Shown piece after piece: positions 382 through 18,225 of a stretch of 39,909 bases of DNA. Under the pieces are notes generated by a model. It was given only the letters and a program-made list of their open reading frames with translations, made no database searches and was not told the DNA's origin. The position numbers were made by a program, and so were the translations under genes. Origin of the DNA: a virus (Duplodnaviria; Heunggongvirae; Uroviricota; Caudoviricetes); the IMG/VR virus record IMGVR_UViG_2706794690_000014. The stretch is one strand, 5' to 3'. Position 1 is the first letter of the stretch, and each line of letters starts with the position of its first letter.

Positions 382-701
382 TCCCGTTACCTTCCGGGAT
401 CAAAATTTGGCTGGTTGCCGGTATCACCGATATGAGAAATGGCTTCAACGGCCTGGCTGCGAAAGTACAGACGGCGCTGAAAGACGATCCCATGTCCGGC
501 CATGTTTTCATTTTCCGGGGCCGCAGCGGCAGTCAGGTTAAACTGCTGTGGTCCACCAGTGACGGACTGTGCCTCCTGACCAAACGGCTGGAGCGTGGGC
601 GCTTCGCCTGGCCGTCAGCCCGTGATGGCAAAGTGTTCCTTACACAGGCGCAGCTGGCGATGCTGCTGGAAGGTATCGACTGGCGACATATAACCAGGTG
701 A
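378..701 (+). CDS. tnpB: IS66-family protein TnpB (orf2)
   Basis: 107-aa ORF coupled to tnpA by ATGA overlap; typical IS66 orf2 size and position. The expected orf3 (tnpC) does not follow; phage DNA starts instead. Confidence 0.75.
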   Translation: MIPLPSGIKIWLVAGITDMRNGFNGLAAKVQTALKDDPMSGHVFIFRGRSGSQVKLLWSTSDGLCLLTKRLERGRFAWPSARDGKVFLTQAQLAMLLEGIDWRHITR

Positions 702-702
702 A

Positions 703-862
703 TCATTTGATACCGACAAGGGGTTTAGTGAAAGGAGGTGAAATCACCTGTAAGATACTGAAATAAAACAGGTGATGGCTAGATGTGCGGATAAGGTCTA
801 TTTGATACCGATTGTGCAATAATTAGTCATTTATTATAAAATCGGCAACTCATTTGATACTG
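703..862. repeat. Left-end cluster of putative transposase-binding repeats (attL)
   Basis: Three direct copies seen in sequence: tcatttgataccg (703-715), ctatttgataccg (798-810), tcatttgatactg (850-862). The same motif occurs inverted at the right end. Confidence 0.6.
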
Positions 863-934
863 TGGTTTTAGTCTTTTAAGGCGTTCCAAACAATGCGAAA
901 TACTCGATATAGTGCAAAATGCGGGCTAATGCTA

Positions 935-1480
935 TTAACCCGCTTTTGGTTCTACCGCGTTAGATTTGCGACTTCTCTCAGTTTCTTCCAAAATCTCTCT
1001 GACGCGTTCGTCAGACATACCTTCAAGCTGTAATGCAGCTATTCTTTTCCTTCCTTCTAAGCGGATTAGATCTTGATTTTCAGGCTCTAACAACCGAGCT
1101 AAGTACTTGGCTCCATTCAGAACCAAATTTTTCGATAGCTGCTCTAAGTCTTTTTCATCAAGTGCGCTGATAATCGTCATAATTATCTTCTTGCTTTCAT
1201 CTTGATTTTCCTTGATCTCACACCGATTCACTTGTGATGCATCACTGAATCCACATAGCCACTCAACACTTACTCCTTCGATAGACGCAATCTGAAGGGC
1301 GACACTTAAGGATGGCTCAGTGCCACGAGACAGATAATTGTTTAGTGTTGAAAATGAAAGCCCCCAATCTCTTGCTGCAGCTCTGACGCTGCGGGAGCCA
1401 ATCAGCCTTTTCAGACGCTCAGCAATGCTTTCTTTTCTACCACCAGGAAAAGAAAGAGATGTTGTTGTTTGCTTGTTCAT
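935..1480 (-). CDS. Phage repressor (c-like), HTH DNA-binding protein
   Basis: 181-aa minus-strand ORF divergent from ner and the transposase operon; N-terminal region reads as a helix-turn-helix. Position matches the Mu c repressor. Confidence 0.6.
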   Translation of the reverse strand: MNKQTTTSLSFPGGRKESIAERLKRLIGSRSVRAAARDWGLSFSTLNNYLSRGTEPSLSVALQIASIEGVSVEWLCGFSDASQVNRCEIKENQDESKKIIMTIISALDEKDLEQLSKNLVLNGAKYLARLLEPENQDLIRLEGRKRIAALQLEGMSDERVREILEETERSRKSNAVEPKAG

Positions 1481-1534
1481 TTTCTTTTCTTCCTATCAAT
1501 TTGAAATTATTAACTTTTAGTGTTGTCAGCAACC

Positions 1535-1636
1535 ATTGATCCACAATAGACAAAAGAAAGATGTTTTTTTTGCTTTACATGAAGCAGAAGTGGATCAATA
1601 CTTATATCAAACTTGATAACTAAGTTTAGTTATCAA
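1535..1636. promoter_or_regulatory. Operator/divergent promoter region between repressor and ner
   Basis: Perfect 24-bp palindrome ttgataactaa-gt-ttagttatcaa (1613-1636) and a perfect 10-bp inverted repeat attgatccac/gtggatcaat (1535-1544 and 1590-1599), in the AT-rich gap between divergent genes. Confidence 0.45.
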
Positions 1637-1665
1637 ATTTCGTAACTTTTTAGGATAGATGAATC

Positions 1666-1896
1666 ATGGCGAGAAATGAAGTTAAGCCTGATTGGCATCC
1701 TCAAAGAATTTTGGGGGAAGTCAGAGCCAGAGAAGGAAGCATGAGGGCGCTGGCCCGTAAAGCTGGCGTGGGTCAGAACAATCTGTACAACGCGGTATAC
1801 CGCCATGTTCCCAAGTATGAGGGGATTATCGCGGAATGCCTGGGGGTGCCGCCCGAGGAGATTTGGCCCAGCCGCTACATTCGTAAGGTCGCGTAA
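1666..1896 (+). CDS. ner: Ner-like DNA-binding protein (Ner/Nlp family)
   Basis: 76-aa ORF immediately upstream of the transposase gene. Contains the conserved W-H and C-terminal IWPSRY motifs characteristic of Mu Ner. Confidence 0.85.
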   Translation: MARNEVKPDWHPQRILGEVRAREGSMRALARKAGVGQNNLYNAVYRHVPKYEGIIAECLGVPPEEIWPSRYIRKVA

Positions 1897-1898
1897 TT

Positions 1899-3986
1899 AT
1901 GTTTGCTTCAGTTAAAGAACTGGTTGGATTACCGGGGATGCCGGGAACGGAGCAAGGCGTTCGCTATTCAATCAGGAAGTATGCAACCAGCGAAACCAGC
2001 AGACGCCGCAAGAAAGGCGCTAAAGGTTTTGAATACAGCATTGACTGTTTACCTGAAGTGACACAGCAGGCATTACGCGAACGTTATGCCCTGCAACTGA
2101 TGACGCAAAAAGCCGATGAATCACCGGCTCCGGTGGTGACAAAGGCCAGACGCTCGTCTGCCGTGGTTGATGCGGTGGAGGCATATCGCGGATCACCACA
2201 ACTGATGGTCGAACGCCTCAATGCCCTGACTGAAAACCAGCGCCAGGTGGCAGACGCACGCATTGCGATCGTCAGTGAGGTGCTGAAATTCACGCAACAA
2301 CCCGGTTTCAGCTGCGCTAAAGCTATCCGGTTCCTCGTTAACAGCCTGGCACGATCACAACTGGACGAGCGCATTGTGGCAATGGTTGAGACGGCGAACG
2401 CCAAAAAGGGAAACAGCCGCGCGTTGAGTGAAATCACGCTGAAACGCTGGATTGCGGCCTTTAACAAGGCACAGAACGCCGCTGAACGCCTGCTTTTACT
2501 GGCACCGGGTAAACGCCAGGAAATAAAAGCCGAAGATATTAACTGGCTGCCCGAATTTCTGGCGCAGTATCGCCAGTCAAACGGCCGACCAATGACCGAG
2601 GCTTACGAGGATTTTGTTGCTGAATGGCAGCACCGGCACGCTGATGAGCCTTATATGCTCGATATCATGCCCTCTTATGACACCATTCGCCGCGCAATGA
2701 AGAAACTGCCGGAAGTGGTGAAACAAAAAGGCCGGGTAACTGGCAGTGAATACCGTCAGCTTGAGGGATTCACGCGCCGCGACTGGTCCAGAATGCCGGT
2801 GAATTATGTCTGGATTGGTGACGGTCACGGCATGAAGCTGAAATGCGCGCACCCGGTTCACGGGCGGCCATTCGCACCGGAAGTGACCTTTGTTATCGAC
2901 GGTGGCACGCGCTTTGTGGTGGGCTGGAGCCTTGACCTGGCTGAAAATGTTTTCGCCGTAGCCGGTGCCATACAGCACGGTATTCGCCATCATGGCAAAC
3001 CGTTTCTGTATTACTCGGATAATGGCTCCGGGGAAACCGCCGACGTCCTGGATAAGGAGATTGTGGGGATACTGCCACGACTGGGGATTAATCACCCGAC
3101 AGGGATTGCCGGTAATCCGCAGGGACGGGGCATTATCGAACGGCTTAACCGCACATTACCGATGCGCATAGCCCGTAAATACCGCACCTATTTCGGGAAA
3201 GGAGCAGATCGCGAGACGTTACGTAAAACCAACCGCGATTTACGCTCGGCATTCAGTGCCCTGCAACAGGGCAAACGGCTGAACGCCCGGCAGCAGTCAG
3301 CGATGCGTGATTTACCGTCCTGGTCTGAACTGATTGATGCCATTCGTGACGGTGTTGAGTGGTACAACAACCGGCCGCACGATGAATTACCCATGAAGCC
3401 GAACGGTAAACATTACAGCCCGGCGGAGTTCAGAAAAAAACGCCTGGCGGAAGAGGACACGGAAATTGAATGGCTGTCCGATGTTGAACTGCGGGATATG
3501 TTCCGGCCGATGGTGGAGCGCCCTGTAAGACGCTGTGAAATACGCTGGCTGAATAATATTTACTACGCGCCCGAGCTGCGTGACGAGCATGGCCGTAAGG
3601 TACTTATCAGCTATGACATTCATGATGCCGAACGAATTACCGTGCGCCGCCCGGATGGCAGCGTGATTTGCGAGGCGGTATGGGACGGCAATAAACGCGA
3701 AGCCTTCCCTGTCAGCGCGGAATACTACAAACAGCAGCAGCGCCTTAAAGGCATGCGTAAACGCGCAGAGGAAAAAATCCGTGATGCCGAGGATGAGGTT
3801 GTCAACGTGCTGGAGCACAAGCCGCAGGAGCCCTGGCTGGAAAACATATACCGCCCTGTGGGTAATACGGTGACCGTTCAGCAACCGGTCGCTGACGATG
3901 AACCTGATGAAGAATACGAGCGTAATTTCCAGCGGGGATTGCAACTGCTCGAAGCGAAATTAAAAGAAAGTGATCCGCTGGCCTGA
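1899..3986 (+). CDS. DDE transposase, MuA-like
   Basis: 695-aa ORF following ner, with an integrase-core-like region (VWIGDGHGMKL...). Size and position match Mu transposase A. Confidence 0.85.
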   Translation: MFASVKELVGLPGMPGTEQGVRYSIRKYATSETSRRRKKGAKGFEYSIDCLPEVTQQALRERYALQLMTQKADESPAPVVTKARRSSAVVDAVEAYRGSPQLMVERLNALTENQRQVADARIAIVSEVLKFTQQPGFSCAKAIRFLVNSLARSQLDERIVAMVETANAKKGNSRALSEITLKRWIAAFNKAQNAAERLLLLAPGKRQEIKAEDINWLPEFLAQYRQSNGRPMTEAYEDFVAEWQHRHADEPYMLDIMPSYDTIRRAMKKLPEVVKQKGRVTGSEYRQLEGFTRRDWSRMPVNYVWIGDGHGMKLKCAHPVHGRPFAPEVTFVIDGGTRFVVGWSLDLAENVFAVAGAIQHGIRHHGKPFLYYSDNGSGETADVLDKEIVGILPRLGINHPTGIAGNPQGRGIIERLNRTLPMRIARKYRTYFGKGADRETLRKTNRDLRSAFSALQQGKRLNARQQSAMRDLPSWSELIDAIRDGVEWYNNRPHDELPMKPNGKHYSPAEFRKKRLAEEDTEIEWLSDVELRDMFRPMVERPVRRCEIRWLNNIYYAPELRDEHGRKVLISYDIHDAERITVRRPDGSVICEAVWDGNKREAFPVSAEYYKQQQRLKGMRKRAEEKIRDAEDEVVNVLEHKPQEPWLENIYRPVGNTVTVQQPVADDEPDEEYERNFQRGLQLLEAKLKESDPLA

Positions 3987-4068
3987 AATAAAAAAATAAC
4001 CCGAGGGGTGACTCAGGTTATTTGAGGTTTCAGTCTCGGAGAATGCTGTCTCAAGCGAGGTGAATAAT

Positions 4069-5001
4069 ATGACCGATATTAACGATGTAATCAAGACCAT
4101 TGATGAACTTATTGATGGCGGCGTACTGACGCAGTATGCCATCGCCAGAGAGGCGGGAATTTCCGACGGCACATTATCGGCTTTCCGTAAGGGAAAATAT
4201 AAAGGCGATAACGCTGCTGTGGCTGCTTCCCTGCGCTCCTGGTATGAGAACTGGAATAAACAAAGCGCACTGCCGGAACCGCCGCAGTTTGTGGAAACTC
4301 AGACAGTCCAGGAGCTGCGCGCACTGTTTCAGGCGGTTCGCCTGATGGGCTGTATTAACGTTATTGTGGGCGTACCGGGTGTGGGTAAAACGGCCACTGC
4401 CCGTAATTACTGCCAGGAGCAACCAAACACCTGGATGATCACCCTGTCACCCGCGCACTCCAGCGTCACGGAGTGTCTGCTGGAGCTGGCCGATGCGCTG
4501 GGGATTGATTACACCCGCGCGAACAAAGGGGCATTATCCCGCGCCATCCGCCGTCGCCTGATGGGAACGCGTGGACTGGTGATTGTGGATGAGGCGGATC
4601 ATCTTGGTATTGACGGTCTGGAGCAACTCCGGGCAATTCAGGACGCCACGGGGATCGGGATGGTGCTTATTGGTAACCCGCGCGGATTGTTTAAAGGTGG
4701 ACGCCGCGCCTTTGATGATTTATCGCGCCTGTTCAGCCGTCTTGCCCGTACAAAACAACTTCGCAAGGCCAAAAAGGCGGATGTGCTGGCCATTGCCATG
4801 GCGTGGGGGATCAGTGGTGAGGCCGAGCTGGCCGTCATGCAGGCTATCGCTGAAAAGCCGGGAGCGTTACGCGTTCTGACACATACGCTTAACCAGGCGT
4901 GGCTCACCGCCAGCGGTGAAGGCGCGGCGCTGACAGAAAAACATATTAATGCGGCCTTTAAAGAGGTTTATACCAACCCTGAATTACTCTCACAGGTGTG
5001 A
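4069..5001 (+). CDS. Transposition ATPase, MuB-like (AAA+)
   Basis: Walker A motif GVPGVGKT; follows the transposase. ATG at 4069 with GAGG 8 nt upstream is preferred over the GTG at 4060. Confidence 0.8.
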   Translation: MTDINDVIKTIDELIDGGVLTQYAIAREAGISDGTLSAFRKGKYKGDNAAVAASLRSWYENWNKQSALPEPPQFVETQTVQELRALFQAVRLMGCINVIVGVPGVGKTATARNYCQEQPNTWMITLSPAHSSVTECLLELADALGIDYTRANKGALSRAIRRRLMGTRGLVIVDEADHLGIDGLEQLRAIQDATGIGMVLIGNPRGLFKGGRRAFDDLSRLFSRLARTKQLRKAKKADVLAIAMAWGISGEAELAVMQAIAEKPGALRVLTHTLNQAWLTASGEGAALTEKHINAAFKEVYTNPELLSQV

Positions 5002-5003
5002 TT

Positions 5004-5225
5004 ATGGCGGTATTTAATATTCCTGATATTTACGGACGCTTTTACCTGGTTAATTTCGATAACGTGAAGGTGATTTCACTGGCCGAAAATAAAGAATGTG
5101 GCGATTTACTTTTTGAATTTAATGACCGCACACGAATGGTGATATCTGCCGGACTTGATCGCGAAGGTGCGACAGAAGTTTACAGCGGAATATGCCGTTC
5201 TGTTGGTGCGAAACAAGTCAGCTAA
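5004..5225 (+). CDS. Hypothetical early protein
   Basis: ORF in the early accessory region; start abuts the MuB stop. No recognisable domain. Confidence 0.4.
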   Translation: MAVFNIPDIYGRFYLVNFDNVKVISLAENKECGDLLFEFNDRTRMVISAGLDREGATEVYSGICRSVGAKQVS

Positions 5226-5237
5226 ATGAGGTGTTAT

Positions 5238-5492
5238 ATGAATATGCAATCCTGCGGTAACAAAATGAATTTATTCGACTCCCTGAACAGCGCGCGCCGT
5301 CTGACCGAACTTGCCGGTGCGGTACTGGAACGCAGTAAGCGCTATCCGCAACGTTTTGCACTGAAAACCACGCCGCCGGTAGGCAACGTGCAGGGAACCG
5401 GTGAAATTGAAATCACCATACAGACCAACGGCCTGCGCCGCCGTGTGAAGGCCACCCGCATCAGCGGCTGCACGGTTTACTGGGAGGTGTGA
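5238..5492 (+). CDS. Hypothetical early protein
   Basis: ORF with GAGGTG upstream; start could be 5226, 5238 or 5244. Confidence 0.4.
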   Translation: MNMQSCGNKMNLFDSLNSARRLTELAGAVLERSKRYPQRFALKTTPPVGNVQGTGEIEITIQTNGLRRRVKATRISGCTVYWEV

Positions 5493-5493
5493 G

Positions 5494-5775
5494 GTGAAAA
5501 AAAATCTCATTGCATGGGCGTGGTCGAGTGGTCTTATTGAGTTTGGTTACGTCCTGCCGGAAGGTGCATTGCCGATAGTTGCCGGAAAGCCTGCCACGGT
5601 ACGGCATGTGATTGAGGTTATGGCGCGTCATGGACGTGATGAACAGGAGCAGTTACTGGTTCCGGGGATACCGGAAGCGGTGACGGAGGAAGAAGCCTTT
5701 AATGCCATGATTCGGTTCTGCCGTGAGGTTAGACGCCGGGTCAGTTATCCAAACAGAACGAGGACCAGAGGATGA
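5494..5775 (+). CDS. Hypothetical early protein
   Basis: GTG start with GGAGG 8 nt upstream; tightly packed with neighbours. Confidence 0.45.
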   Translation: MKKNLIAWAWSSGLIEFGYVLPEGALPIVAGKPATVRHVIEVMARHGRDEQEQLLVPGIPEAVTEEEAFNAMIRFCREVRRRVSYPNRTRTRG

Positions 5776-6044
5776 GTAAAGTCGTACGCATTATTTTCGA
5801 ATACAAGGAAGATGTTATCTGCAAAAACTCTGATGGCAGCACGCACAGAGGGGTAAGTCTGGATATACGTTCAACCGGAATAAAGAAGAAAGATAATGGA
5901 CCCGCCATGATTTTTGGGGTGGTTATGCTGGCAGAAAGCAGAAACTTCGCAGAGTTTGTGGCAATGAAAGCCAGTGCATTCATGAAAGACAGAGGCATGG
6001 CTTCCGGGGTTATTAACGGTAATGAATTTAATCAACAGGGGTAA
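5772..6044 (+). CDS. Hypothetical early protein (paralog 1 of a tandem pair)
   Basis: Begins MSKVVRIIFEY; N-terminus resembles the next ORF (MSKVRVIFEF). Confidence 0.5.
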   Translation: MSKVVRIIFEYKEDVICKNSDGSTHRGVSLDIRSTGIKKKDNGPAMIFGVVMLAESRNFAEFVAMKASAFMKDRGMASGVINGNEFNQQG

Positions 6045-6048
6045 TTCC

Positions 6049-6342
6049 ATGAGCAAAGTACGCGTTATTTTTGAATTTAATCATGTTTCGCATGACGAAA
6101 AGTTGGCAGGCAATGACTGTGTTGAAGTGCATGAAAAGATTGGAGTGGATGTGAAAACAGAACGTGATACGGATAACAGGCCGACGTCACTCTGTGACGT
6201 TTATGCAAGTATTCTCCAGTATCACAGTCCTGCAATTATTCAGTTTCTCTCAGCGGAATTTCAGGCATCTGCACAGTCTTTTGGAGCGGATGCCATCATT
6301 AAACGCCACCGCGTGCATAAAGCATCAGGCACACTGCAATAA
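6049..6342 (+). CDS. Hypothetical early protein (paralog 2 of a tandem pair)
   Basis: ATG at 6049 gives MSKVRVIFEFNH; similar N-terminus to the upstream ORF at both DNA and protein level. Confidence 0.5.
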   Translation: MSKVRVIFEFNHVSHDEKLAGNDCVEVHEKIGVDVKTERDTDNRPTSLCDVYASILQYHSPAIIQFLSAEFQASAQSFGADAIIKRHRVHKASGTLQ

Positions 6343-6353
6343 GGAAAAACAAA

Positions 6354-6884
6354 ATGGCTAAACGCGTTACAAAATTAAAGGCCGCAGCCGAGGCGGCACC
6401 GCAGACCCGGGAAGAAGTCAGCCGTGATATCCGCACCCTGGGAGATATTCAGCGAGAGGCGCTGCGCCTGGAAACGGCGATGAATGACGAAGTGGCAGAA
6501 ATCACCGCCCGTTATACGCCGCAGATTGAAAATCTTAAAAAGCAAATCAAAGTGCTTTTTAAAGGGATTCAGGACTGGTGCAAAACCAACCGTGATGAGC
6601 TGACGAACGGCGGCAAAACCAAAACAGCCAATCTGACCACCGGAACGGTGTCATGGCGGCTGGGAACGCCATCATGCAGCGTCAGCCGTGATGTGGAAGG
6701 TGTGATTGAAATGCTGCGCCGTATGGGGCTTGAGCGTTTCATCCGCACGAAAGAGGAAGTGAACAAGGAAGCCGTCCTGGCGGAGCCGGATGCTGTGAAA
6801 GGCATTGCCGGTATCAAGGTGAATAAAGGCGCTGAAAGTTTTTATGTCGAGCCTTTTGAACAGGACGCCGGACTGAATAAATAA
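6354..6884 (+). CDS. gam: Host-nuclease inhibitor Gam (Mu Gam family)
   Basis: 176-aa ORF with conserved Gam stretches (RLETAMNDEVAEIT, DELTNGGKTKTANL, RFIRTKEEVNKEA, EPFEQ); position matches Mu. Confidence 0.8.
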   Translation: MAKRVTKLKAAAEAAPQTREEVSRDIRTLGDIQREALRLETAMNDEVAEITARYTPQIENLKKQIKVLFKGIQDWCKTNRDELTNGGKTKTANLTTGTVSWRLGTPSCSVSRDVEGVIEMLRRMGLERFIRTKEEVNKEAVLAEPDAVKGIAGIKVNKGAESFYVEPFEQDAGLNK

Positions 6885-7029
6885 CACCGCATTAATCAAT
6901 TAAATATCACTTCATTTTAATTATGGCGCTCGCGTCAGGGGACTGCTTGCGCCTGAAAACAGAAAATAAGGGTTAAGAAATATGAAATACGTTTATATCG
7001 TCATTAATAATGTGGTGGGGAAATAAATC

Positions 7030-7563
7030 ATGATTGATGCAAAAGTGCTTGAAGGGGTTAAAAACTGGCTGTGTATTTATGGCCGCCTGACCTGCGGTGT
7101 ACTGGCTGAAAAAATGAATATGCCGCCATCCTCCATGGTTTATTTTCTGCGTGATGCGGTTGATGCAGGCGTGCTGACGGAATGTAACGGTTTTTATGAT
7201 ATTCCGCGTCCCCGCCCGGTGCAGCCGGTTCGTCGCAAATGCAGCCAGGAATCTGCGGCTGATGATGTTCAGTGGTGCGGCTTCAGAAAATCCCTGCCAT
7301 GGATTGAGGGGCATGATATTCCGTCGATGGCGTGGGAATTTGCTCAGGGCGTTCTGACCTGTGAAACCGTTTATGTGGTGGCTGAAGTTGATGAGCAGGC
7401 CATGAAAGAAGGCGTGCCCCAGTTTGTGATGGCGTATATCGACATACGCCTGGGCGTCATTATCTGCGGTTTAAGCGGCTGGAATATCACTGAACATGTT
7501 CTGCGCTACCTGATTGTTGACCGGACAGCAGCGCCTGCCGGGATATCTGCGGAGGTGGCGTAA
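7030..7563 (+). CDS. Hypothetical early protein, possible winged-helix N-terminus
   Basis: 177-aa ORF; N-terminal ~60 aa resemble a winged HTH. Function unknown. Confidence 0.45.
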   Translation: MIDAKVLEGVKNWLCIYGRLTCGVLAEKMNMPPSSMVYFLRDAVDAGVLTECNGFYDIPRPRPVQPVRRKCSQESAADDVQWCGFRKSLPWIEGHDIPSMAWEFAQGVLTCETVYVVAEVDEQAMKEGVPQFVMAYIDIRLGVIICGLSGWNITEHVLRYLIVDRTAAPAGISAEVA

Positions 7564-8078
7564 TGTTCTTTAAAACATCAAACCCTTCCGCGCTGGCTGC
7601 GTGGCAAAAATACCAGCAGGACTGCCAGAAAGTTAAGGATGAGGCAAAACGCCTTGAGGCCGTGCTGAATGTTGCGTGCCGGTCGGTATTTGTATCCGGT
7701 ATCAGTGGATTTTACTTTAAGGGACTGCGTTTTACGGAGGACAAATATCCTTTTCATCGCGACTTATGGCGAAAACCGACTGCGTCGAATGGCTGGAGCT
7801 GCACACCGCGCACATCACGTATCCCTAAAACCCTGCGTGTTGCCTCTGATGAACTGAACAGTCTGTGGCGTGAATATTCGCCCGTCACGTATGCCAGAAC
7901 CGATGCGCTGTTGTTCTGGTTGGGTATTGATTTCTCGGCAATCCTGTTTGGCCCTGTGAAGTGGTTCTGCGTTGACGATGTGATTTACCTTCAGTGCGGC
8001 GTAAAACCCGCAAAACAGAAAATGACCGAAATACTGTCTGATGAGTTTTATGCTGCTGAAAAGCGAGTCAGGGGGTGA
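7563..8078 (+). CDS. Hypothetical early protein
   Basis: 171-aa ORF translationally coupled to the upstream gene (TAATG overlap). Confidence 0.45.
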   Translation: MFFKTSNPSALAAWQKYQQDCQKVKDEAKRLEAVLNVACRSVFVSGISGFYFKGLRFTEDKYPFHRDLWRKPTASNGWSCTPRTSRIPKTLRVASDELNSLWREYSPVTYARTDALLFWLGIDFSAILFGPVKWFCVDDVIYLQCGVKPAKQKMTEILSDEFYAAEKRVRG

Positions 8079-8081
8079 TGC

Positions 8082-8633
8082 ATGATGAAATTACAACCCA
8101 TGGGACTAAAAGGTCGCGCCCCCGCTCATGTCCGTCCGTGGACACCTGAAGAAGATGCGCTGCTGATTGCGCTTTATTCATCCACCCCGGTTAAGGATAT
8201 TGCTGCCAGAATAAAAAGAACTGTCTGGGCTGTATATAACCGGACTGGTGTATTGCGCAGTTCATACCCGGAGTTACTGAAATATAAACACCCAAGATTT
8301 ACACCTGATGAAGATAAGTTTATTCGAAAAAATGCCAGAACAATGACCTGCCAGCAAATGGGAGAATATCTCGGACGTAATAAAGATTCTGTCAGATGTC
8401 GGGCAGGAATGATTGGTGCTGGATTAACAAAGTGCGGAGAGTTACGCCCCGGCACGCGCATATCTGATGATGATGTACGTCTTATACGTGAGCTGCGTGA
8501 TTCCGATTACCCACGCCGTCTGTCATTCCGGGAAATTGGCGAAAAGTTTGGAATATCTGAACATTCTGCTCACGCAGTTTATTACCGTCGCCGGACTGCC
8601 GAGGACGCTGTATTACGGGAGTTAACGCCATGA
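8082..8633 (+). CDS. Putative DNA-binding protein with two Myb/SANT-like repeats
   Basis: Two repeats with the W/F-TP-EED signature (RPWTPEEDALLIALY and RFTPDEDKFIRKN), plus a C-terminal HTH-like segment (LSFREIGEKFGIS). Confidence 0.45.
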   Translation: MMKLQPMGLKGRAPAHVRPWTPEEDALLIALYSSTPVKDIAARIKRTVWAVYNRTGVLRSSYPELLKYKHPRFTPDEDKFIRKNARTMTCQQMGEYLGRNKDSVRCRAGMIGAGLTKCGELRPGTRISDDDVRLIRELRDSDYPRRLSFREIGEKFGISEHSAHAVYYRRRTAEDAVLRELTP

Positions 8634-8962
8634 TAACGACCTTATTTGTTGAATCAGATGAACCTCTTGTGTGTGCCGCCGGAATGCCGCTCTGTGGCGG
8701 AACGCTGACCGGCGTTTATTTCGGGGATTTGCGCGGTTATCCCTGGCATTCACTGGATGACGCATTTCCGCCTGATATGGAGGCTGTCGTGCTGATTGTT
8801 CAGTATGGTGACCAACAGGAACTGCGCATCGGCCATATGGGGTATGAAGGCTTTTTTATTGATGAAGAAACCGGAGCCTGCCTTGAAGATGAGGACGGAC
8901 AGGTGACGCACTGGTGCCATCTTTCGGCCTTGCCGGAATTACAGGGGATACATAATGGATGA
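8630..8962 (+). CDS. Hypothetical early protein
   Basis: 110-aa acidic ORF, coupled to the upstream gene by ATGA overlap. Confidence 0.4.
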   Translation: MITTLFVESDEPLVCAAGMPLCGGTLTGVYFGDLRGYPWHSLDDAFPPDMEAVVLIVQYGDQQELRIGHMGYEGFFIDEETGACLEDEDGQVTHWCHLSALPELQGIHNG

Positions 8963-9098
8963 GCAAATTGTTGAATGTCCCACCTGTGGAAATGAGGACC
9001 CGGAGTATCTGAAAGAGTGCCCACATTGTGGTGAGATAAAATGTAACCACTGCGATATGGGCGACGACACTGCATGTATAAATTGTGAGGATGAATAA
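8955..9098 (+). CDS. Small Cys-rich zinc-ribbon protein (47 aa)
   Basis: MDEQIVECPTCGNEDPEYLKECPHCGEIKCNHCDMGDDTACINCEDE: four Cys pairs. Below the ORF-track size cut-off; found by reading the gap. Confidence 0.4.
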   Translation: MDEQIVECPTCGNEDPEYLKECPHCGEIKCNHCDMGDDTACINCEDE

Positions 9099-9099
9099 T

Positions 9100-9387
9100 A
9101 TGGAAAAAGAAATCAAATTTGCGCCTAAATCTATCGACGAAGAACTGGCTAAAATCGGCATGCTTGAACGTATGCGGGACATTATCGAATATGCGATAAA
9201 AGAAAATCTTGCAGCCAGAGAAGCCCTTTTGATAATGGAGCGGGAGATTAACCTGATTAAGGATGCTGTATCTCTGGATAATAAAATAGCCCGCGAGGAA
9301 TACGTTCGCCGTAGGCTCGGTGTTGATGGTTCAGCAATTCTTACATCTGAACATTATGCAAAAATTTTTAATCTTTTTCAGCGGTAA
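9100..9387 (+). CDS. Hypothetical early protein
   Basis: ATG at 9100 with GAGGA 8 nt upstream (MEKEIKF...); predicted helical. Confidence 0.45.
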   Translation: MEKEIKFAPKSIDEELAKIGMLERMRDIIEYAIKENLAAREALLIMEREINLIKDAVSLDNKIAREEYVRRRLGVDGSAILTSEHYAKIFNLFQR

Positions 9388-9607
9388 TCCCCATACAGGC
9401 CCGGAGATTGTCGAAATGCCAGTCGGTATTAATATATGAGCCATCCTGGATATCTTCTGCATTTTCCGGGGTAGAGTTTTTTTGAGCGAGATTGATAATA
9501 TGTATTGCCTCCTCACGGGAAATCAGCCCCTTATCGAACAGGGTTACCATAAGATTTCCAGCCATTGTGAATGCGGCAACATCAAGTGCATTTTTTATAT
9601 CTGACAT
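9368..9607 (-). CDS. Hypothetical protein, reverse-oriented within the early region
   Basis: 79-aa minus-strand ORF with balanced composition and an AAGGA RBS 8 nt before its ATG; overlaps the 3' end of the 9100-9387 gene convergently. Confidence 0.45.
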   Translation of the reverse strand: MSDIKNALDVAAFTMAGNLMVTLFDKGLISREEAIHIINLAQKNSTPENAEDIQDGSYINTDWHFDNLRACMGITAEKD

Positions 9608-9635
9608 AGATTTTTCCTTTTATGTTAATTGACAT

Positions 9636-9664
9636 GGCGGTGCGGTAACACCGCCCATTTTTTA
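9636..9664 (+). terminator. Rho-independent terminator-like hairpin
   Basis: Stem ggcggtg/caccgcc with loop cggtaa, followed by a T6 run (9658-9663); lies just upstream of gemA. Confidence 0.5.
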
Positions 9665-9677
9665 TGGAGCCACGATA

Positions 9678-10190
9678 ATGAATCGCGCTTCCCTGATTAC
9701 CTTAATACATGTCGCAAAACGCGATCTACAGCTTGACCATGATACCTATACATCCGCGCTGCTGGCAGCCACCGGCAAATCCAGTTGCCGTGATATGTCA
9801 CCCGGTGAGTTATCCCGCGTGCTGGATGTTTTCAAAAAACGCGGTTTTAAAGTGCGTCAGAAGCCGGTTAACCGGGCCTTAAAACCGGGTACGGTGACCG
9901 CCAAAATTCGCGCCATCTGGAAAGTGATGCACCGGCAGGGATTTATCTCTGATGGCGGGGAAACGGCCCTTAACCGCTGGGTGAAATCGCAGACGGCCGC
10001 GCAGAACGACGGCGAAGGTGTGGCTAACTGGCAGTGGCTGGAGCAACAACCCGCGCTGGCCTCTGATGTGCTGGAGCGTCTCAAACGCTGGCACCGCCGC
10101 AAAATGCTGGCAGCCCTGGATATGTCGGAACGTGCAGTGATGAGTTATGAGCGTGTTTGCAGGCTGTATGAAAAATCATTCCCCCGTTAA
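9678..10190 (+). CDS. gemA: GemA-like regulatory protein (Mu gp16 family)
   Basis: 170-aa ORF with a LI.LIHVAKR..L.LD..TY N-terminus and RAIW motif typical of Mu gp16; located immediately before the Mor/C gene. Confidence 0.7.
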   Translation: MNRASLITLIHVAKRDLQLDHDTYTSALLAATGKSSCRDMSPGELSRVLDVFKKRGFKVRQKPVNRALKPGTVTAKIRAIWKVMHRQGFISDGGETALNRWVKSQTAAQNDGEGVANWQWLEQQPALASDVLERLKRWHRRKMLAALDMSERAVMSYERVCRLYEKSFPR

Positions 10191-10194
10191 CCCC

Positions 10195-10225
10195 AAATCC
10201 CGCCACAGCGCGGGATTTTTATTTT
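10195..10225 (+). terminator. Rho-independent terminator
   Basis: 9-bp stem aaatcccgc/gcgggattt with a 6-nt loop, followed by ttattttt; directly after the gemA stop. Confidence 0.6.
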
Positions 10226-10260
10226 AAACTTGCCCTGTGTAATGATGACCGGAGGCGGGT

Positions 10261-10683
10261 ATGGCTGAAACACAGATGAGCATGTTTGGTGACAGCGAAC
10301 AGCTGCACGCGCTGATTGACCGTCTGGATGATATTCCTGATGATGAGCTGAAAAAGAACTGGCCCGGCACGCTGCGGGACCTGGTTGATGTGATCAGTGC
10401 TGAACTGCACCGTCAGGGGATTGAACCTGCTCAGGCGGGAATGCTTGCCCGTAAGGTTGCAGCCGCACAGGCCGGGTACATGGGCGGGCGTGGTTATTAT
10501 CTCCCGGTCGGTGAATCCCTTTTCACCGAACTGCGCAATAATGAAATTTTTTCCCGCTGGAGCCAGGGCGAAAAAATTGAAACCCTGCGCCGCCACTACC
10601 AGATGTCAGAGACGCAGATTTACTCCGTTATCCGCAACCAGCGTCGCCTGCATCAGGAACGCACGCAGCCACGGCTTTTCTGA
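10261..10683 (+). CDS. Mor/C-family late transcription activator
   Basis: 140 aa with a C-terminal HTH (MSETQIYSVIRNQRR); sits between gemA and the lysis genes as Mor/C do in Mu. Cannot tell Mor from C. Confidence 0.7.
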   Translation: MAETQMSMFGDSEQLHALIDRLDDIPDDELKKNWPGTLRDLVDVISAELHRQGIEPAQAGMLARKVAAAQAGYMGGRGYYLPVGESLFTELRNNEIFSRWSQGEKIETLRRHYQMSETQIYSVIRNQRRLHQERTQPRLF

Positions 10684-10754
10684 TATTCCGCAAATCCTGC
10701 CCCCTTTTCCTCACGGTTACGCTGACTCAGAGAACACCATGAGACAGCGTAACA

Positions 10755-11255
10755 ATGCCAAAACTCCCCGCACCCCTGCGTAAAAAGCTGATTGCCCTTG
10801 TTCTGGCCGGAGCCGGGACGTTCACCATTGCCACGCACTACACCGGCTACTGGGAAGGGAAAGAAAACACCACGTACATTGATCCCACCGGCACCCCCAC
10901 CATCTGTTACGGCCATACCGGCCCGGATGTGAAACCGGGGATGACAAAAACTGATGAAGAGTGTCTGGAGCTGCTGGAAAAGGACATGAAATGGGCCTTT
11001 GCGGCTATCGATCGTCATGTTCAGGTGCCGCTTACCCGTGGTCAGACGGTGGCGCTGGCCTCCTGGATTTTCTGGGCCGGTGAAACGAACTTTCGCAACT
11101 CCACGCTCCTGCGCCTTATCAATGCCGGGCAGATGCCCGCGTCCTGTAAGCAGTATATCCGCTGGATTTATTCAAAGGGGGTAAAACTCCCCGGTCTTGA
11201 GGCCCGCCGTTCGGCGGATGAATGGTTATGTCGTTACGATTTGCCGAAAGTCTGA
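10755..11255 (+). CDS. lys: Endolysin (phage lysozyme) with N-terminal SAR-type signal anchor
   Basis: Catalytic E-x8-D-x5-T pattern (WEGKENTTYIDPTGTPTICYGHT); weakly hydrophobic Gly/Ala-rich N-terminus (LIALVLAGAGTFTIATHY). Confidence 0.8.
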   Translation: MPKLPAPLRKKLIALVLAGAGTFTIATHYTGYWEGKENTTYIDPTGTPTICYGHTGPDVKPGMTKTDEECLELLEKDMKWAFAAIDRHVQVPLTRGQTVALASWIFWAGETNFRNSTLLRLINAGQMPASCKQYIRWIYSKGVKLPGLEARRSADEWLCRYDLPKV

Positions 11256-11328
11256 ACCGCTTCTGGCGACCGCTCATGATTGCGCTGCTGTGTGCCGTTG
11301 TGCTGCTGCGGGGTGTGCTGTGTCTGCG

Positions 11329-11718
11329 GTGAACAATCCCTTACCGGCCCTGATTGCCGGAGGCTGTATGGCGGCGCTGGGGGTGATGAGCGTGCTGGCT
11401 GCCGTGGTATGGGGAATGCACCAGAAGACGCAGCGCCTTGAGGACAATAATCATGTGCTTGTGCGTGAACGGGACGAAGCCCGTCTGGTGCTGGCAAACC
11501 AGCAACGCACCCTGCAACTCATTTCACAAATCAGCAAGGCGGCCACGAATGAAAAACAGCAGAACATGCAGCACAGCGAGGAACAGCAGAGCATTGTCCG
11601 CCGGTCACTGGCAACGGTGCCTGCTGCCGCTGTGCCTGTGCCTGATGATGTGGCTGACCGGGTGCGGCGGGCCGTCTGTGAAATACGTGCCGGTGAAGCC
11701 GGTGCCGATCCCCGCTGA
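11329..11718 (+). CDS. Putative i-spanin (Rz-like)
   Basis: N-terminal TM segment (LPALIAGGCMAALGVMSVLAAVVW) followed by a charged, coiled-coil-like region. Start uncertain (GTG 11329, ATG ~11369, or ATG 11197). Confidence 0.55.
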   Translation: MNNPLPALIAGGCMAALGVMSVLAAVVWGMHQKTQRLEDNNHVLVRERDEARLVLANQQRTLQLISQISKAATNEKQQNMQHSEEQQSIVRRSLATVPAAAVPVPDDVADRVRRAVCEIRAGEAGADPR

Positions 11719-11920
11719 ATGGCTGGCTGACTGCCTGGTCCCTCCCGCGCCGCAGCCGTTCACGTTTGGTGCATCGGTCACTTACAACCTGCAACTGCTG
11801 GCGGTGATTAAAAACTGCAACGTGGACAAGGCCAGCATCCGCCGTCTGGAGACACAGCGACAGCATGAATTTACTGATATGGCCGGAACGACTGCTGTTC
11901 CGGCAGGAAAGACGAAGTAA
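11549..11920 (+). CDS. Putative o-spanin (Rz1-like lipoprotein), overlapping the i-spanin in another frame
   Basis: Lipobox-like LTGC followed by a Pro-rich mature region (PVKPVPIPAEW...PPAPQP); begins inside the i-spanin and extends past it. Start uncertain. Confidence 0.5.
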   Translation: MKNSRTCSTARNSRALSAGHWQRCLLPLCLCLMMWLTGCGGPSVKYVPVKPVPIPAEWLADCLVPPAPQPFTFGASVTYNLQLLAVIKNCNVDKASIRRLETQRQHEFTDMAGTTAVPAGKTK

Positions 11921-11930
11921 GGAAAAAGGT

Positions 11931-12158
11931 ATGGATGATTCAGATTGTGCTCAGGCAGTCATGGAGCGTGCAACAGAACGCGCCCTTTGTGACCGGCTGA
12001 CACGTAAGCGCCGGGTGGCGGAGACACCGGGCAGGCGTGTATGCGCGGACTGCGGGGGTGACATTCCGGCTGCCCGTCTGGTTGCCGTGCCGGATGCCAT
12101 CCGTTGTGTGAACTGCCAGAACATCATGGAGGCCGGTCATGTGGGTCAGCATCGTTAA
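11931..12158 (+). CDS. TraR/DksA-family C4 zinc-finger protein
   Basis: CADCGGDIP...CVNC C4 motif in a ~75-aa protein, as in phage/plasmid TraR-like proteins; ATG at 11931. Confidence 0.6.
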   Translation: MDDSDCAQAVMERATERALCDRLTRKRRVAETPGRRVCADCGGDIPAARLVAVPDAIRCVNCQNIMEAGHVGQHR

Positions 12159-12450
12159 AGATTATGTCGTGCCGATCCTGTCGGCAACGGCCACAGCCGG
12201 GGGGATCTTCATGGCGCTGATGCGCAAAACCTTTGTCCCCCGCGAGGCCTTTGAAAAACTCTCCGACCGGGTTGAGCGGGTGGAGAGCCGGATTTCCGGC
12301 CTGCCCACGCAGCAGGAGGTGAACAGACTCAATATCGAAATCACCACCCTGCGCGGTGAGCTTAAGGCCACCAATGCCACCCTGAAATCCGTCTCCCATC
12401 AGAACGAACTGCTGCTGGAGCAGGCTGTAAGGAAAAAACACAATGAGTGA
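12139..12450 (+). CDS. Small membrane protein (TM plus coiled coil); possible lysis accessory
   Basis: N-terminal hydrophobic segment (VVPILSATATAGGIFMALM) followed by a coiled-coil-like region; located between the lysis and packaging genes. Confidence 0.45.
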   Translation: MWVSIVKDYVVPILSATATAGGIFMALMRKTFVPREAFEKLSDRVERVESRISGLPTQQEVNRLNIEITTLRGELKATNATLKSVSHQNELLLEQAVRKKHNE

Positions 12451-12733
12451 TTTCATTACTGAAGATCAGCGTCTTGTCATTCTGCGGTCGCTGGCGGATT
12501 ACAACGGCGAACTGGGCGAATCCGTGCTTCAGGACTGCCTGGATGATTACGGTCACCGCGTGTCCCGCGACACCGTTCATACCCACATTGCCTGGCTTGC
12601 CGAGCAGGGACTGGTGCGTAAGCGCACGCTTGTTAACGGTTATTTCATCGCTGAACTGACCGGCCGGGGTCAGGATGTGGCGGAAGGCCGCGCCACCGTT
12701 CCGGGTGTGAAGAAACCACGCGCAAGGGGGTAA
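12443..12733 (+). CDS. Hypothetical late protein
   Basis: 96-aa ORF coupled to its neighbours; no recognisable domain. Confidence 0.4.
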   Translation: MSDFITEDQRLVILRSLADYNGELGESVLQDCLDDYGHRVSRDTVHTHIAWLAEQGLVRKRTLVNGYFIAELTGRGQDVAEGRATVPGVKKPRARG

Positions 12734-12735
12734 CG

Positions 12736-13317
12736 ATGGATAAGCCAGCGCGTGGCCGTGTACGCAAGGTGGATTTGCTCCCCGACAGCATCCGTAAGCC
12801 GCTGCTGGAAATGCTGCGTGAAAAACGTCTGACGCAGGTCCAGATCCGCGAGGAAATCAACCGTCTGATCCGTGAAGCAGGTCTGCCGGAAGAGCAGCAG
12901 CTCTCACCGGCGGCCATCAGCCGGGAAGCCTCCCGTAATGAGCTGATTGCCCGTAATCTGCGTGATTTACGCGAGCAGACAAAAGCCATGATGGCCGAAC
13001 TGGGGGATAAGCCGACCGGTGAAACCACGGCACTGATTCTGGAGATGTCCCGTGCCCTGATGTACCGCCGTCTGCGTGCCGCCACCGAATCCCTGAACAG
13101 CGACAGCGATGTGGATATGCGCCTTATTAAGGACATCCTCCTGTCGGCACAGCGTGCAGAAAGTGCCGCCGAGCGCAGCATTAAGCGTGAAAAAGAAATC
13201 CGGGCCGCATTTGCTGAAGAGATGGCGAATGCGGTCACCGATGAGTTGCGCGGCGTGGATGGCATGAGCGAGCAGATCGAATTCCGTATCAGGCAGATGC
13301 TGCTGGGTAAGGCGTAG
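12736..13317 (+). CDS. Putative terminase small subunit / DNA-binding protein (Mu gp27-like)
   Basis: 193-aa charged helical protein two genes upstream of the large terminase, as in Mu. Confidence 0.5.
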   Translation: MDKPARGRVRKVDLLPDSIRKPLLEMLREKRLTQVQIREEINRLIREAGLPEEQQLSPAAISREASRNELIARNLRDLREQTKAMMAELGDKPTGETTALILEMSRALMYRRLRAATESLNSDSDVDMRLIKDILLSAQRAESAAERSIKREKEIRAAFAEEMANAVTDELRGVDGMSEQIEFRIRQMLLGKA

Positions 13318-13327
13318 GAGGTGAATC

Positions 13328-13576
13328 ATGGCAACAGATAACCGCTCACTGATGAGCAGTGCCCATCAGAAAGCATTCAGTCTTGCAACACAGTTACCTC
13401 CTGAAACCATAAAGGTATGTCGTGAGTTGACTGAACTCAGCATTGCCGGGGAAATATCCCTGGAACAACTGCATTCGCTGCTGGCAGAGGCTGCCACTGA
13501 TGAGTTGAGCGGCGTGGACGTGATGACTGAAGAGCTTGAGTCCCGAATCAAAAGCATTCTGACAGGTAAAGCATGA
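13328..13576 (+). CDS. Small protein paralogous to the C-terminus of the preceding gene
   Basis: C-terminal ~25 aa (DELSGVDVMTEELESRIKSILTGKA) parallel the upstream protein's C-terminus (DELRGVDGMSEQIEFRIRQMLLGKA); DNA is also similar. Confidence 0.45.
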   Translation: MATDNRSLMSSAHQKAFSLATQLPPETIKVCRELTELSIAGEISLEQLHSLLAEAATDELSGVDVMTEELESRIKSILTGKA

Positions 13577-15240
13577 TGAACAAAGCCAGAGAAACGTCGC
13601 CTTCACTGATGCAAATGACGCCTCCCCGCAAAATTGATCTGTCAGGTGAAAAAGCCCTGCTGGGCGTGGATGTGCCGGACAGCCTTGATTTGCCCGGTGA
13701 TATGCCGGTGTTTCTGGATTATCAGGCCCGCTGGTTTGCAGATGAAAGTCAGGTCTGCATCGCGGAGAAATCCCGCCGCACCGGTCTTACCTGGGCGGAA
13801 GCCGGGCGTAACGTCATTACTGCTGCAAAACCGAAGCGTCGTGGTGGCCGCAATGTGTTTTATGTGGGATCAAAGCAGGAGATGGCGCTGGAATATATTT
13901 CTGCCTGCGCGCTGTTCTCCCGTGCCTTTAACCAGCTGGCAGATGCTGATGTGTATGAGCAGACATTCTGGGATCGGGATAAAAAAGAAGAAATTTTGAC
14001 CTACATGATCCGCTTTCCGAACAGTGGATTCAAAATTCAGGCATTGTCTTCCCGTCCGTCAAACCTGCGCGGCCTTCAGGGGGATGTGGTGATTGATGAA
14101 GCCGCGTTCCACGAGTCACTGGATGAGCTTCTCAAGGCGGCAATGGCGCTCACTATGTGGGGCGCGCGCGTGCGTATTATCTCCACGCATAACGGCGTCG
14201 ATAATCTGTTTAATCAGTACATTCAGGAAGCCCGCGAGGGGCGCAAGGATTACAGCGTCCACCGCATAACCCTGGATGATGCCATTGCGGACGGGCTGTA
14301 CCGTCGTATCTGTTACGTCACCGATCAGGAATGGTCACCGGAAAGCGAGCAGAAATGGCGTGATGATCTCTACAAAAACGCCCCGACCCGTGAGGATGCC
14401 GACGAGGAATACGGCTGTATCCCGAAAAAATCCGGCGGTGCCTATATCCCCCACGCGCTTATTGAAATGGCGATGATCCGCGACATCCCGATTCTGACGT
14501 TTGAAGCCCCGGACAACTTCATCAGCCGTGCCGCATGGCTGCGTGAATCGGAAGTTTTAACCTGGTGTGAAGAACATTTAAAACCGCTTTTAGAGAAATT
14601 AAATCCCCGTTCCCGCTTCAGCTTCGGGGAAGACTTTGCCCGCACCGGTGACCTGTCCTGCTTTGTGCTGCTGGAAATCACCGAATCCCTGGCAAAGCGC
14701 GAGGTGTTTCGCGTGGAGCTGCGCAACCTGCCGTATGCCCAGCAGGAACAGGTGATGATGTACATCCTGACCCGCGTTCCGGCGCTGGTCGGTGCGGCGT
14801 TCGACGCCACCGGTAACGGCGGCTATCTGGCAGAGGCCGCACTGCTGGCCTTTGGCCCGGACATCATCGACTGCGTGATGTTGTCGCCGAAGTGGTACGG
14901 CGAGTGGATGCCAAAACTGAAAGCCGAGTTTGAAGATCAGAATATCCTCGTCGCCCGCCATCAGACCACGCTTGATGATTTGCGCCATGTGAAGGTAGTG
15001 AATGGTATCCCGCAAATCGACAAGGGGCGCACGAAGGACCAGAACGCAACGGCTGCGAACGCCCGCCGCCATGGTGATTTTGCCGTGGCGCTCTGTATGG
15101 CAAACCGGGCGTCATACATGGAGGGCTTCATCCTGGATGAATCAGCCTGTCAGGCGCTACAGGAGCGGTCGCGGGCAATGGAGGGCGGTTATCGTGATGA
15201 CGATGAGGCATATCATGAATTTGATCGGGGGGGCTGGTAG
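13573..15240 (+). CDS. Terminase large subunit (Mu gp28-like)
   Basis: 555-aa ORF directly upstream of the portal; size, position and ATPase/nuclease-like composition fit TerL. Confidence 0.8.
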   Translation: MMNKARETSPSLMQMTPPRKIDLSGEKALLGVDVPDSLDLPGDMPVFLDYQARWFADESQVCIAEKSRRTGLTWAEAGRNVITAAKPKRRGGRNVFYVGSKQEMALEYISACALFSRAFNQLADADVYEQTFWDRDKKEEILTYMIRFPNSGFKIQALSSRPSNLRGLQGDVVIDEAAFHESLDELLKAAMALTMWGARVRIISTHNGVDNLFNQYIQEAREGRKDYSVHRITLDDAIADGLYRRICYVTDQEWSPESEQKWRDDLYKNAPTREDADEEYGCIPKKSGGAYIPHALIEMAMIRDIPILTFEAPDNFISRAAWLRESEVLTWCEEHLKPLLEKLNPRSRFSFGEDFARTGDLSCFVLLEITESLAKREVFRVELRNLPYAQQEQVMMYILTRVPALVGAAFDATGNGGYLAEAALLAFGPDIIDCVMLSPKWYGEWMPKLKAEFEDQNILVARHQTTLDDLRHVKVVNGIPQIDKGRTKDQNATAANARRHGDFAVALCMANRASYMEGFILDESACQALQERSRAMEGGYRDDDEAYHEFDRGGW

Positions 15241-18145: not shown

Positions 18146-18225
18146 GGTCAGTGGCGGGGGTCGAACCCGCATACATGATCCACCCGGAGGCAGGCACCGA
18201 CTTTACCAGTTAAGCGTACACTGAC
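18146..18225 (-). ncRNA. tRNA-like element (possible degenerate tRNA)
   Basis: On the minus strand: 7-bp acceptor stem, U8, D-loop-like TAACTGGTAA, and a perfect T-arm (GCGGG-TTCGACC-CCCGC). No convincing anticodon stem could be folded by eye. Confidence 0.25.

Follow-up and report, generated by a model that had tools for sequence, protein, structure and literature searches.

The gene at 8082..8633 of the window, by which we mean the whole 39,909-nucleotide (39.9-kb) stretch of DNA analysed here, encodes a 183-aa protein that is predicted to fold into three helix-turn-helix (HTH) modules. By sequence comparison, it is significantly homologous to the D5 protein of phage T5 and to gp9 of phage Mu. 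The protein is an annotated member of a large and widespread phage family with a poorly studied biology. We consider it very likely to be a DNA-binding protein of the D5 family. The best explanation, which is probable by analogy with D5, is that this DNA-binding protein has an accessory part in lytic development. Taken by itself, the functional analogy to D5 is tentative.

The window is an Escherichia coli Mu-like transposable prophage. Positions 7500-9700 are 100% identical to a chromosome segment of E. coli strain 600029. The annotation of the prophage in that chromosome lists a repressor, an HTH protein, Mu transposase, an AAA ATPase (B), Gam, a gp16 (GemA) family protein, Mor, lysozyme and Mu-type head genes. 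The prophage lies within sgrR there: next to its left end is an sgrR pseudogene without the N-terminal part (locus L001, 1116-2189), so that the Mu-like prophage apparently inserted into this gene. The gene order in the window is repressor, transposase A, B, gam, gp11-like, gp12-like, the 183-aa gene, gemA and mor. The original prediction placed the gene in a phage early operon, and its position in a Mu-like prophage between the gp12-like gene and gemA/mor bears this out. The gene and its neighbours are as follows:

7030-7563, + strand: Mu gp11-like gene (Pfam Gp11_C, PHROG 1949)
7563-8078, + strand: Mu gp12-like gene (PHROG 2314, common to Mu gp12)
8070..8075, + strand: Shine-Dalgarno-like AGGGGG, read from the sequence, 6 nt 5' of the ATG
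8082..8633, + strand: coding sequence of the D5-like triple-HTH protein (= WP_000977059.1; 183 aa, 21 kDa, pI 9.9)
8630-8962, + strand: gene for an acidic 110-aa protein (pI 4.05, PHROG 6925), translationally coupled
8955-9098, + strand: gp13-like gene (PHROG 5584; 47 aa, acidic, 8 cysteines, zinc-ribbon-like)
9085-9387: gp14-like gene (profile search)
9368-9607 (-): gp15-like ORF
9678-10190: GemA gene (profile search)

The genes around 8082..8633 are tightly packed. The stop codon of the gp12-like gene (8076-8078) sits between AGGGGG and the ATG, 3 nt before the latter, and the TGA of the 183-aa gene (8631-8633) overlaps the ATG of the next gene (8630-8632) in the sequence ATGA. No above-chance promoter-like or terminator-like site separates the gene from its neighbours. 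When the region 6300-10800 was scanned for repeats, promoters and terminators, nothing rose above chance except the DNA footprint of the protein repeat described below. The 183-aa gene and the acidic 110-aa gene separate the gp12-like from the gp13-like gene, an insertion when compared with Mu, and the 110-aa gene has no counterpart in Mu proper. The dN/dS between alleles of the 183-aa gene is 0.24-0.26, which shows a protein under purifying selection. It is a real, conserved early-operon gene.

Other parts of the prophage are variable or unusual. Two terminator-like hairpins with T-runs flank gemA on the + strand, at 9636-9655 upstream and 10195-10218 downstream, in a region where the count of such structures does not exceed chance. 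In each allele class, 12-14 of the 20 related IMG/VR loci could not be aligned to the segment of about 8900-9700, which carries the gp13-like, gp14-like and gp15-like genes; the prophages are otherwise nearly identical, and this segment is therefore a variable cassette. The intergenic region from gam to the gp11-like gene spans 145 nt in the window (6885-7029) versus about 670 nt in three related loci (L022, where it occupies 6120-6790, L028 and L034), so that these prophages carry an extra insert. In addition, a tRNA-like element lies at 18146-18225 on the - strand, between a head-morphogenesis gene (16813-18144) and a virion-morphogenesis gene (18266-18739). RefSeq labels it ‘tRNA-OTHER’; it scores 31 bits against the Rfam tRNA model (gathering 29, E 8e-5) with an over-long anticodon/variable region, and ARAGORN reported zero tRNAs over the whole window.

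The 183-aa protein contains a real internal duplication. A W/F-TP-EED signature had been noticed twice about 50 residues apart, and both copies are confirmed: WTPEED at aa 20-25 (nt 8139) and FTPDED at aa 73-78 (nt 8298), with a spacing of 53 residues. These are the only two matches to [WFY]TP[DE][DE]D across the six frames of the window. Two matches were found in none of 300,000 shuffles of the protein (expectation 4.7e-5 per shuffle), which places the pair beyond chance. A direct repeat at the DNA level (8142-8156 / 8301-8315) mirrors the protein motif. The duplication itself follows from an hhalign self-comparison based on an alignment of 21 homologues (A1), in which aa 12-66 matched aa 66-120 with a probability of 98% and an E-value of 2.4e-13 over 42 columns. 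The third segment (aa 119-183) had no significant similarity to either repeat in this comparison.

Structure prediction organizes the protein into an arm and three compact modules:

8082..8135, + strand: N-terminal basic arm, aa 1-18 (M.LKPMG.PGKCPAH.R), conserved yet predicted to be disordered
8136..8261, + strand: Myb-like repeat 1, aa 19-60 (WTPEED; helices 22-32, 37-44, 48-58)
8295..8417, + strand: Myb-like repeat 2, aa 72-112 (FTPDED; helices 75-84, 90-97, 101-110)
8418..8456, + strand: conserved linker, aa 113-125 (K117 and G119 near-invariant, ‘KCGD/E’)
8457..8630, + strand: third HTH module, aa 126-183 (helices 129-140, 149-156, 160-169; C-terminal helix 173-181)

The AlphaFold2 model built on A1 has a mean pLDDT of 84 and consists of three three-helix bundles, all-helical and with zero beta strands; the two-repeat fragment (aa 15-116) reached a pLDDT of 90 when modelled separately. 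The predicted fold of three HTH bundles is thus held with high confidence. The arm has a pLDDT below 50 for aa 1-14, and its first 18 residues have a pI of 12. Repeats 1 and 2 are likewise basic (pI 9.4 and 9.7). Across 36 full-length homologues, conservation extends to the arm motif, W20, R46 (invariant), R54, L97, K117, G119, L138, R170 and the C-terminal TA.DA..RE.LP. The invariant R46 of repeat 1 aligns with the arginine of the Myb ‘GRT’ motif. Family entropy is highest in helix 3 of each module, and helix 1 is most conserved.

The third module corresponds to the HTH-like segment that had been proposed near the C-terminus, a proposal supported both by the model helices and by weak Pfam matches to HTH_AsnC-type, HTH_10 (18.7 bits, threshold 23.1) and Sigma70_r4. 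Its type is that of a homeodomain, sigma-70 region 4 or AsnC-type HTH. When the module was searched alone, the best match was the homeodomain 2da1 (E 0.017), including the ‘RP.TRI.DD’ arm. It is extremely improbable that the protein is a regulator of the AsnC/Lrp family. Homologues of 57-74% identity are named ‘AsnC family protein’, and the protein has a match of 18.8 bits to HTH_AsnC-type; however, this match is below the gathering threshold of 27 and covers the HTH only (aa 130-164), and the all-helical model has no alpha/beta RAM effector domain. This identity was rejected on the basis of architecture.

The resemblance of the duplicated repeats to Myb/SANT domains is evident at the level of the family. 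As a single sequence, the protein scores 19.7 bits against PF00249 (Myb_DNA-binding; gathering threshold 24.4) and 16.5 bits against PF13921 (22.9), failing both, and it lies below the gathering threshold of every Pfam family. Some homologues of 45-50% identity have precomputed PF00249/PF13921 matches. A family profile of 36 members searched against the PDB matched the c-Myb DNA-binding domain with an E-value of 4.2e-10, B-Myb with 1.4e-8 and Trichomonas Myb proteins with about 1e-6. The alignments span one W-T-x-E-E-D, the linker and the next copy, and the period of about 52 residues matches. Given these profile matches with shared periodicity, we assign the repeats to the Myb/SANT/homeodomain-like three-helix HTH fold, with Myb as the nearest sequence family. 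The claim of two Myb/SANT-like repeats stands for the family profile and for the predicted tandem three-helix bundles of about 50 residues with an HTH, but not for the single sequence measured against Pfam.

The likeness to classical Myb domains is incomplete. Only the first position of the three-tryptophan core is aromatic (W20, F73); the second Myb tryptophan falls in a 2-3-residue family gap just before D39-I40-A41, and the third aligns with T55. The predicted two-repeat fragment was not recovered as a rigid R2R3 pair on superposition. The fold is equally near to GcrA and Tc3-type HTHs, and the likeness extends to Tc3 transposase and LuxR-type HTHs. On the sequence comparisons, the repeats would at best be termed divergent Myb-like repeats.

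The protein belongs to a family that is common in phages. It matches PHROG 323, ‘transcriptional regulator, D5-like’, with an E-value of 5.3e-53 (181.6 bits, aa 2-182 on profile positions 80-256), and the identical RefSeq protein WP_000977059.1 is named ‘SANT/Myb-like DNA-binding domain-containing protein’. Of 5426 complete E. coli genomes, 232 carry the gene, and the 90% cluster of the RefSeq protein comprises 447 member sequences. When 1.84 billion representatives were searched exhaustively, 1141 proteins matched at E<=1e-3, many of which are 300-800 aa long with 3-12 repeat copies. The summed scores of these multi-repeat relatives exceed the Pfam Myb thresholds, and some have helicase domains. 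BFVD contains many phage look-alikes with multiple HTHs, including ‘D5 protein’ and ‘Myb-like domain-containing protein’. The premise that Myb-like repeats are uncommon in phage proteins is therefore wrong, as PHROG 323, the 1141 matches, the BFVD look-alikes and the T5 D5 and Mu gp9 homologues attest. Apart from this claim of rarity, the earlier interpretation was essentially right.

Several further searches were negative. Scanning species-representative genomes with the family alignment yielded zero relatives, and PADLOC-DB models produced zero matches at E<=0.01 to the 183-aa protein and five neighbours. The literature searched yielded nothing on Myb-like proteins of Mu-like prophages or on Mup09. 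The DRT4/ORF55 paper deals with a different, ssDNA-binding protein.

Names given to the protein in E. coli genomes are inconsistent, ranging from SANT/Myb-like, AsnC family and DNA-binding protein to HTH domain protein and hypothetical. As the RefSeq name and the PHROG class already cover the Myb-like call, that call has little significance as it stands. What is added here is that the variously named proteins of E. coli and Salmonella prophages are one family; since this family is homologous to T5 D5 and Mu gp9, ‘AsnC family’ is a misnomer.

T5 D5 falls in the same PHROG 323 (E 1.2e-71) and is collinear with all three modules (hhalign 96.4%, E 1.1e-9, 147 columns); BLASTP gives an E-value of 2e-7 over 183 aa. 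The T5 record describes D5 as ‘DNA-binding protein; required for DNA replication and late transcription; also involved in shutoff’, and its gene lies inside a ligase-helicase-primase-polymerase cluster. The primary paper on D5, going by its title as cited in PMC12630848, is McCorquodale et al. 1979. Mu gp9 (E8) corresponds to repeat 2 plus module 3 (hhalign 97.4%, E 1.1e-11). The window phage has no gene at the gp9 position, and the 183-aa gene is its sole D5-like gene.

Homologues are also found in other early regions. In Salmonella-type Mu-like prophages, the position of the gene is kept at 58-59% identity. The homologues in P2-like prophages have 38-46% identity; in their early operon, they follow a D12-class Dam methylase and precede replication gene A, and may be accompanied by DUF4406, a C5-methylase, a PAPS-reductase-like protein or Ash. 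The homologue of Citrobacter phage Shae_phiSM (Peduoviridae) is encoded upstream of a replication endonuclease. An obligatory pairing with Dam was considered and rejected: Dam is adjacent in four P2-like loci and absent beside the Shae_phiSM homologue, which therefore indicates no fixed partner. Cluster-J mycobacteriophages carry the two-repeat module as a fusion to an HNH_3 nuclease (Thibault gp103). Taken together, the P2-like, mycobacteriophage and T5 contexts link the module to DNA binding and replication-proximal early functions.

Two larger proteins carry similar repeats. T5.108 (locus L002, 9546-12329) is a 928-aa ‘replication origin binding’ protein with annotated SANT/Myb InterPro and helicase domains. 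P0031, an 807-aa metagenomic relative, combines ResIII/Helicase_C with a run of repeat-type HTHs, counted as 6 query-matching stretches or 4-5 Pfam Myb stretches. It thus seems that phage replication proteins recurrently use Myb-like repeats as a module for DNA binding.

We infer DNA binding by the 183-aa protein, as we do its target and biological role. The evidence for DNA binding is the pI of 9.9, the basic repeats and the occurrence of the module as the non-catalytic part of an HNH_3 endonuclease, and this is the most reasonable function. In gp103, the two-repeat module is N-terminal to the nuclease, which is the position of a DNA-targeting domain. This gene lies between two short DNA-methylase ORFs (gp102-gp105, locus L055, 1000-2801). 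The Thibault methylase gene looks as if it was split by insertion of a homing endonuclease, and a methylase-flanked site is typical of a homing endonuclease with a DNA-targeting non-catalytic part.

SANT domains often bind proteins instead of DNA, and the protein could in principle be an adaptor or RNA polymerase-directed factor that, like GcrA, docks onto a host protein instead of binding DNA. By analogy, this would be suggested by the SANT domains of CoREST and Bdp1 and the GcrA DNA-binding domain (DBD) among the best fold matches, by the resemblance of module 3 to sigma-70 region 4, by the T5 D5 equivalent of this module, which exceeds the Pfam Sigma70_r4_2 threshold, and by the effect of T5 D5 on transcription timing. 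We nevertheless consider such an adaptor improbable. Typical SANT surfaces are acidic, whereas both repeats of the phage protein are basic; in an HNH endonuclease, it is the two-repeat module that makes up the non-catalytic part; and T5 D5 is annotated as a DNA-binding protein. The GcrA C-terminal domain and a match to PF07750 (GcrA) are both absent, with zero matches of the latter to the 183-aa protein even at E<=10, and the isolated DBD fold alone matches.

The fusion to HNH_3 in mycobacteriophages also raises the question of whether the protein is what remains of a homing endonuclease after loss of the nuclease: a DNA-targeting domain, domesticated or in decay, that persists as selfish or neutral cargo and contributes nothing to the phage cycle. 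Weak PHROG matches to ‘HNH endonuclease’ and ‘endonuclease’ families point the same way, as do the status of the gene as a mosaic insertion when compared with Mu and its exchange by recombination. However, the three-module architecture, N-terminal motif and C-terminal tail remain conserved between Mu-like and P2-like prophages even at about 30% identity, dN/dS outside helix 3 is 0.13-0.19, and matches are intact and full-length throughout the 232 E. coli genomes. An endonuclease relic is therefore highly doubtful.

Comparison with related E. coli prophages revealed that the gene exists as discrete alleles:

8200..8630, + strand: allelic divergence island, 65-81% nucleotide identity to the commoner E. 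coli allele, with flanks of 92-100%

The island corresponds to aa ~40-183, and identity rises again at the stop codon. The 40 IMG/VR loci compared fall into two groups of 20 in a perfectly bimodal split; in complete genomes, the window-type allele is present in 29 and alleles of 77-80% in 204. Positive selection was rejected as the cause, as dS is raised too (0.79-0.89 inside the island vs 0.1-0.27 in the flanks) and dN/dS is 0.23-0.25. Raised dS with low dN/dS means that the island is an old allele exchanged by recombination. Within it, the amino-acid differences are concentrated in the turn and helix 3 of the three modules (22/42 vs 24/141 elsewhere, Fisher p 1e-5), where dN/dS is 0.57-0.70 compared to 0.13-0.19 elsewhere. 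The finding of discrete prophage alleles that arose by recombination, with differences concentrated in three recognition helices, is modestly new.

These alleles bear on the possibility that the protein is a sequence-specific transcription factor, in which alleles represent different DNA specificities and the modules together read a composite phage or host site of about 15-20 bp. In its favour are the concentration of differences and the elevated dN/dS in the turn and helix 3, the top family entropy of helix 3, and the alignment of N53 and Y52 with N183 and K182 of c-Myb R3, which are base-contacting residues. Against it, in a comparison of 20 window-type loci with as many of the other type, made in bins of 100 nt across 600-16900 of the window, only 8200-8630 was perfectly bimodal, and no co-varying cis element or other non-coding segment was found within +/-8 kb. 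Nor was a repeated candidate binding site found near the gene (6300-10800). The association with mor is partial, dN/dS remains below 1, and non-specific binders also vary freely at exposed helix-3 residues. Allele-specific DNA recognition would account for the divergence of helix 3, and so would weak constraint on the exposed residues of a backbone binder. Moreover, the fact that the recognition helices are the most variable parts of the family argues against one conserved specific target. A sequence-specific transcription factor is therefore unlikely, and ‘regulator’ is a label that we infer.

Two neighbouring genes behave differently from the island. Mor (10200-10700) also has diverged alleles (~80% vs ~99% identity) that partly, not strictly, track those of the Myb-like gene; L022, for instance, combines the other Myb-like allele with a Mor that is 100% identical. 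The 110-aa gene is 94-95% identical across both Myb-like alleles and thus does not co-vary with the Myb-like gene.

It is a long shot that the alleles could mark a second, hitherto unrecognised specificity determinant of Mu-like phages, each with its own DNA sites and thereby tuning replicative transposition or the early-to-middle switch according to phage type. If true, allele-specific sites would avoid cross-talk among the up to four Mu-like prophages per genome, and the protein might match a genetically defined function of the Mu semi-essential early region that is still without a gene.

On the basis of these results, we propose the following model for a D5-family DNA-binding protein. The gene would be transcribed with the Mu-like early operon upon induction or infection, yielding a monomer-sized basic protein in which a basic arm is followed by two duplicate Myb-like repeats and a sigma-r4/homeodomain-like HTH on flexible linkers. 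The third helix of each module would enter the major groove of DNA, while R46, R54, R107 and R170 and the N-terminal arm may grip the backbone. The protein would in this way read or coat an extended stretch of duplex DNA and modulate phage DNA transactions, which in a Mu-like phage might be replicative transposition and/or the early-to-middle switch. The semi-essential region of Mu is dispensable and Mu proper does not have a three-module gene; any role is therefore accessory. Knowledge of T5 D5 provides an experimental way into this uncharacterised gene of the Mu semi-essential region. If replication or the timing of transcripts in transposable phages proved to be under the control of the protein, this would close a small gap in what is known of Mu.

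As compared with known systems, the protein resembles c-Myb R1R2R3 (PF00249, PF13921) in the W/F-T-x-E-E-D start of helix 1, the ‘GRT’ before helix 3, the period of about 52 residues and the three-helix fold. It differs in that aliphatic or other residues replace the second and third conserved tryptophans and, relative to eukaryotic Myb/SANT proteins, in its bacterial/phage setting and its extra third, non-Myb HTH. The DBD of Caulobacter GcrA (PDB 5yiu) is connected to the family through multi-repeat relatives of the 183-aa protein that score on Pfam GcrA; the protein itself lacks both the sigma-70-binding C-terminal domain of GcrA and a PF07750 match. The first 100 residues of Thibault gp103 are 35% identical to aa 12-118, covering both repeats, but an HNH_3 nuclease domain takes the place of the third HTH.

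The closest parallels are phage proteins. T5 D5 (T5.118, YP_006946.1), the type member of PHROG 323, is likewise an early phage gene product and has a WTPEQE repeat 1, an FTPDEE repeat 2 and a third HTH. Unlike the 183-aa protein, it has 255 aa, with about 55-70 extra N-terminal residues, and is encoded by a virulent phage within a replication cluster. It is essential in replication and late transcription, a role with no demonstrated counterpart in Mu-like phages; as the two proteins are only 23% identical, function may not transfer. Mu gp9 (E8, NP_050613.1) has 99 aa, with a single Myb-like repeat and the third HTH, and its gene is upstream of gam, whereas the 183-aa gene is downstream of gp12. 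It nevertheless belongs to PHROG 323 (E 5e-29), is homologous to aa 66-166 and is likewise encoded in the semi-essential early region of a transposable phage.
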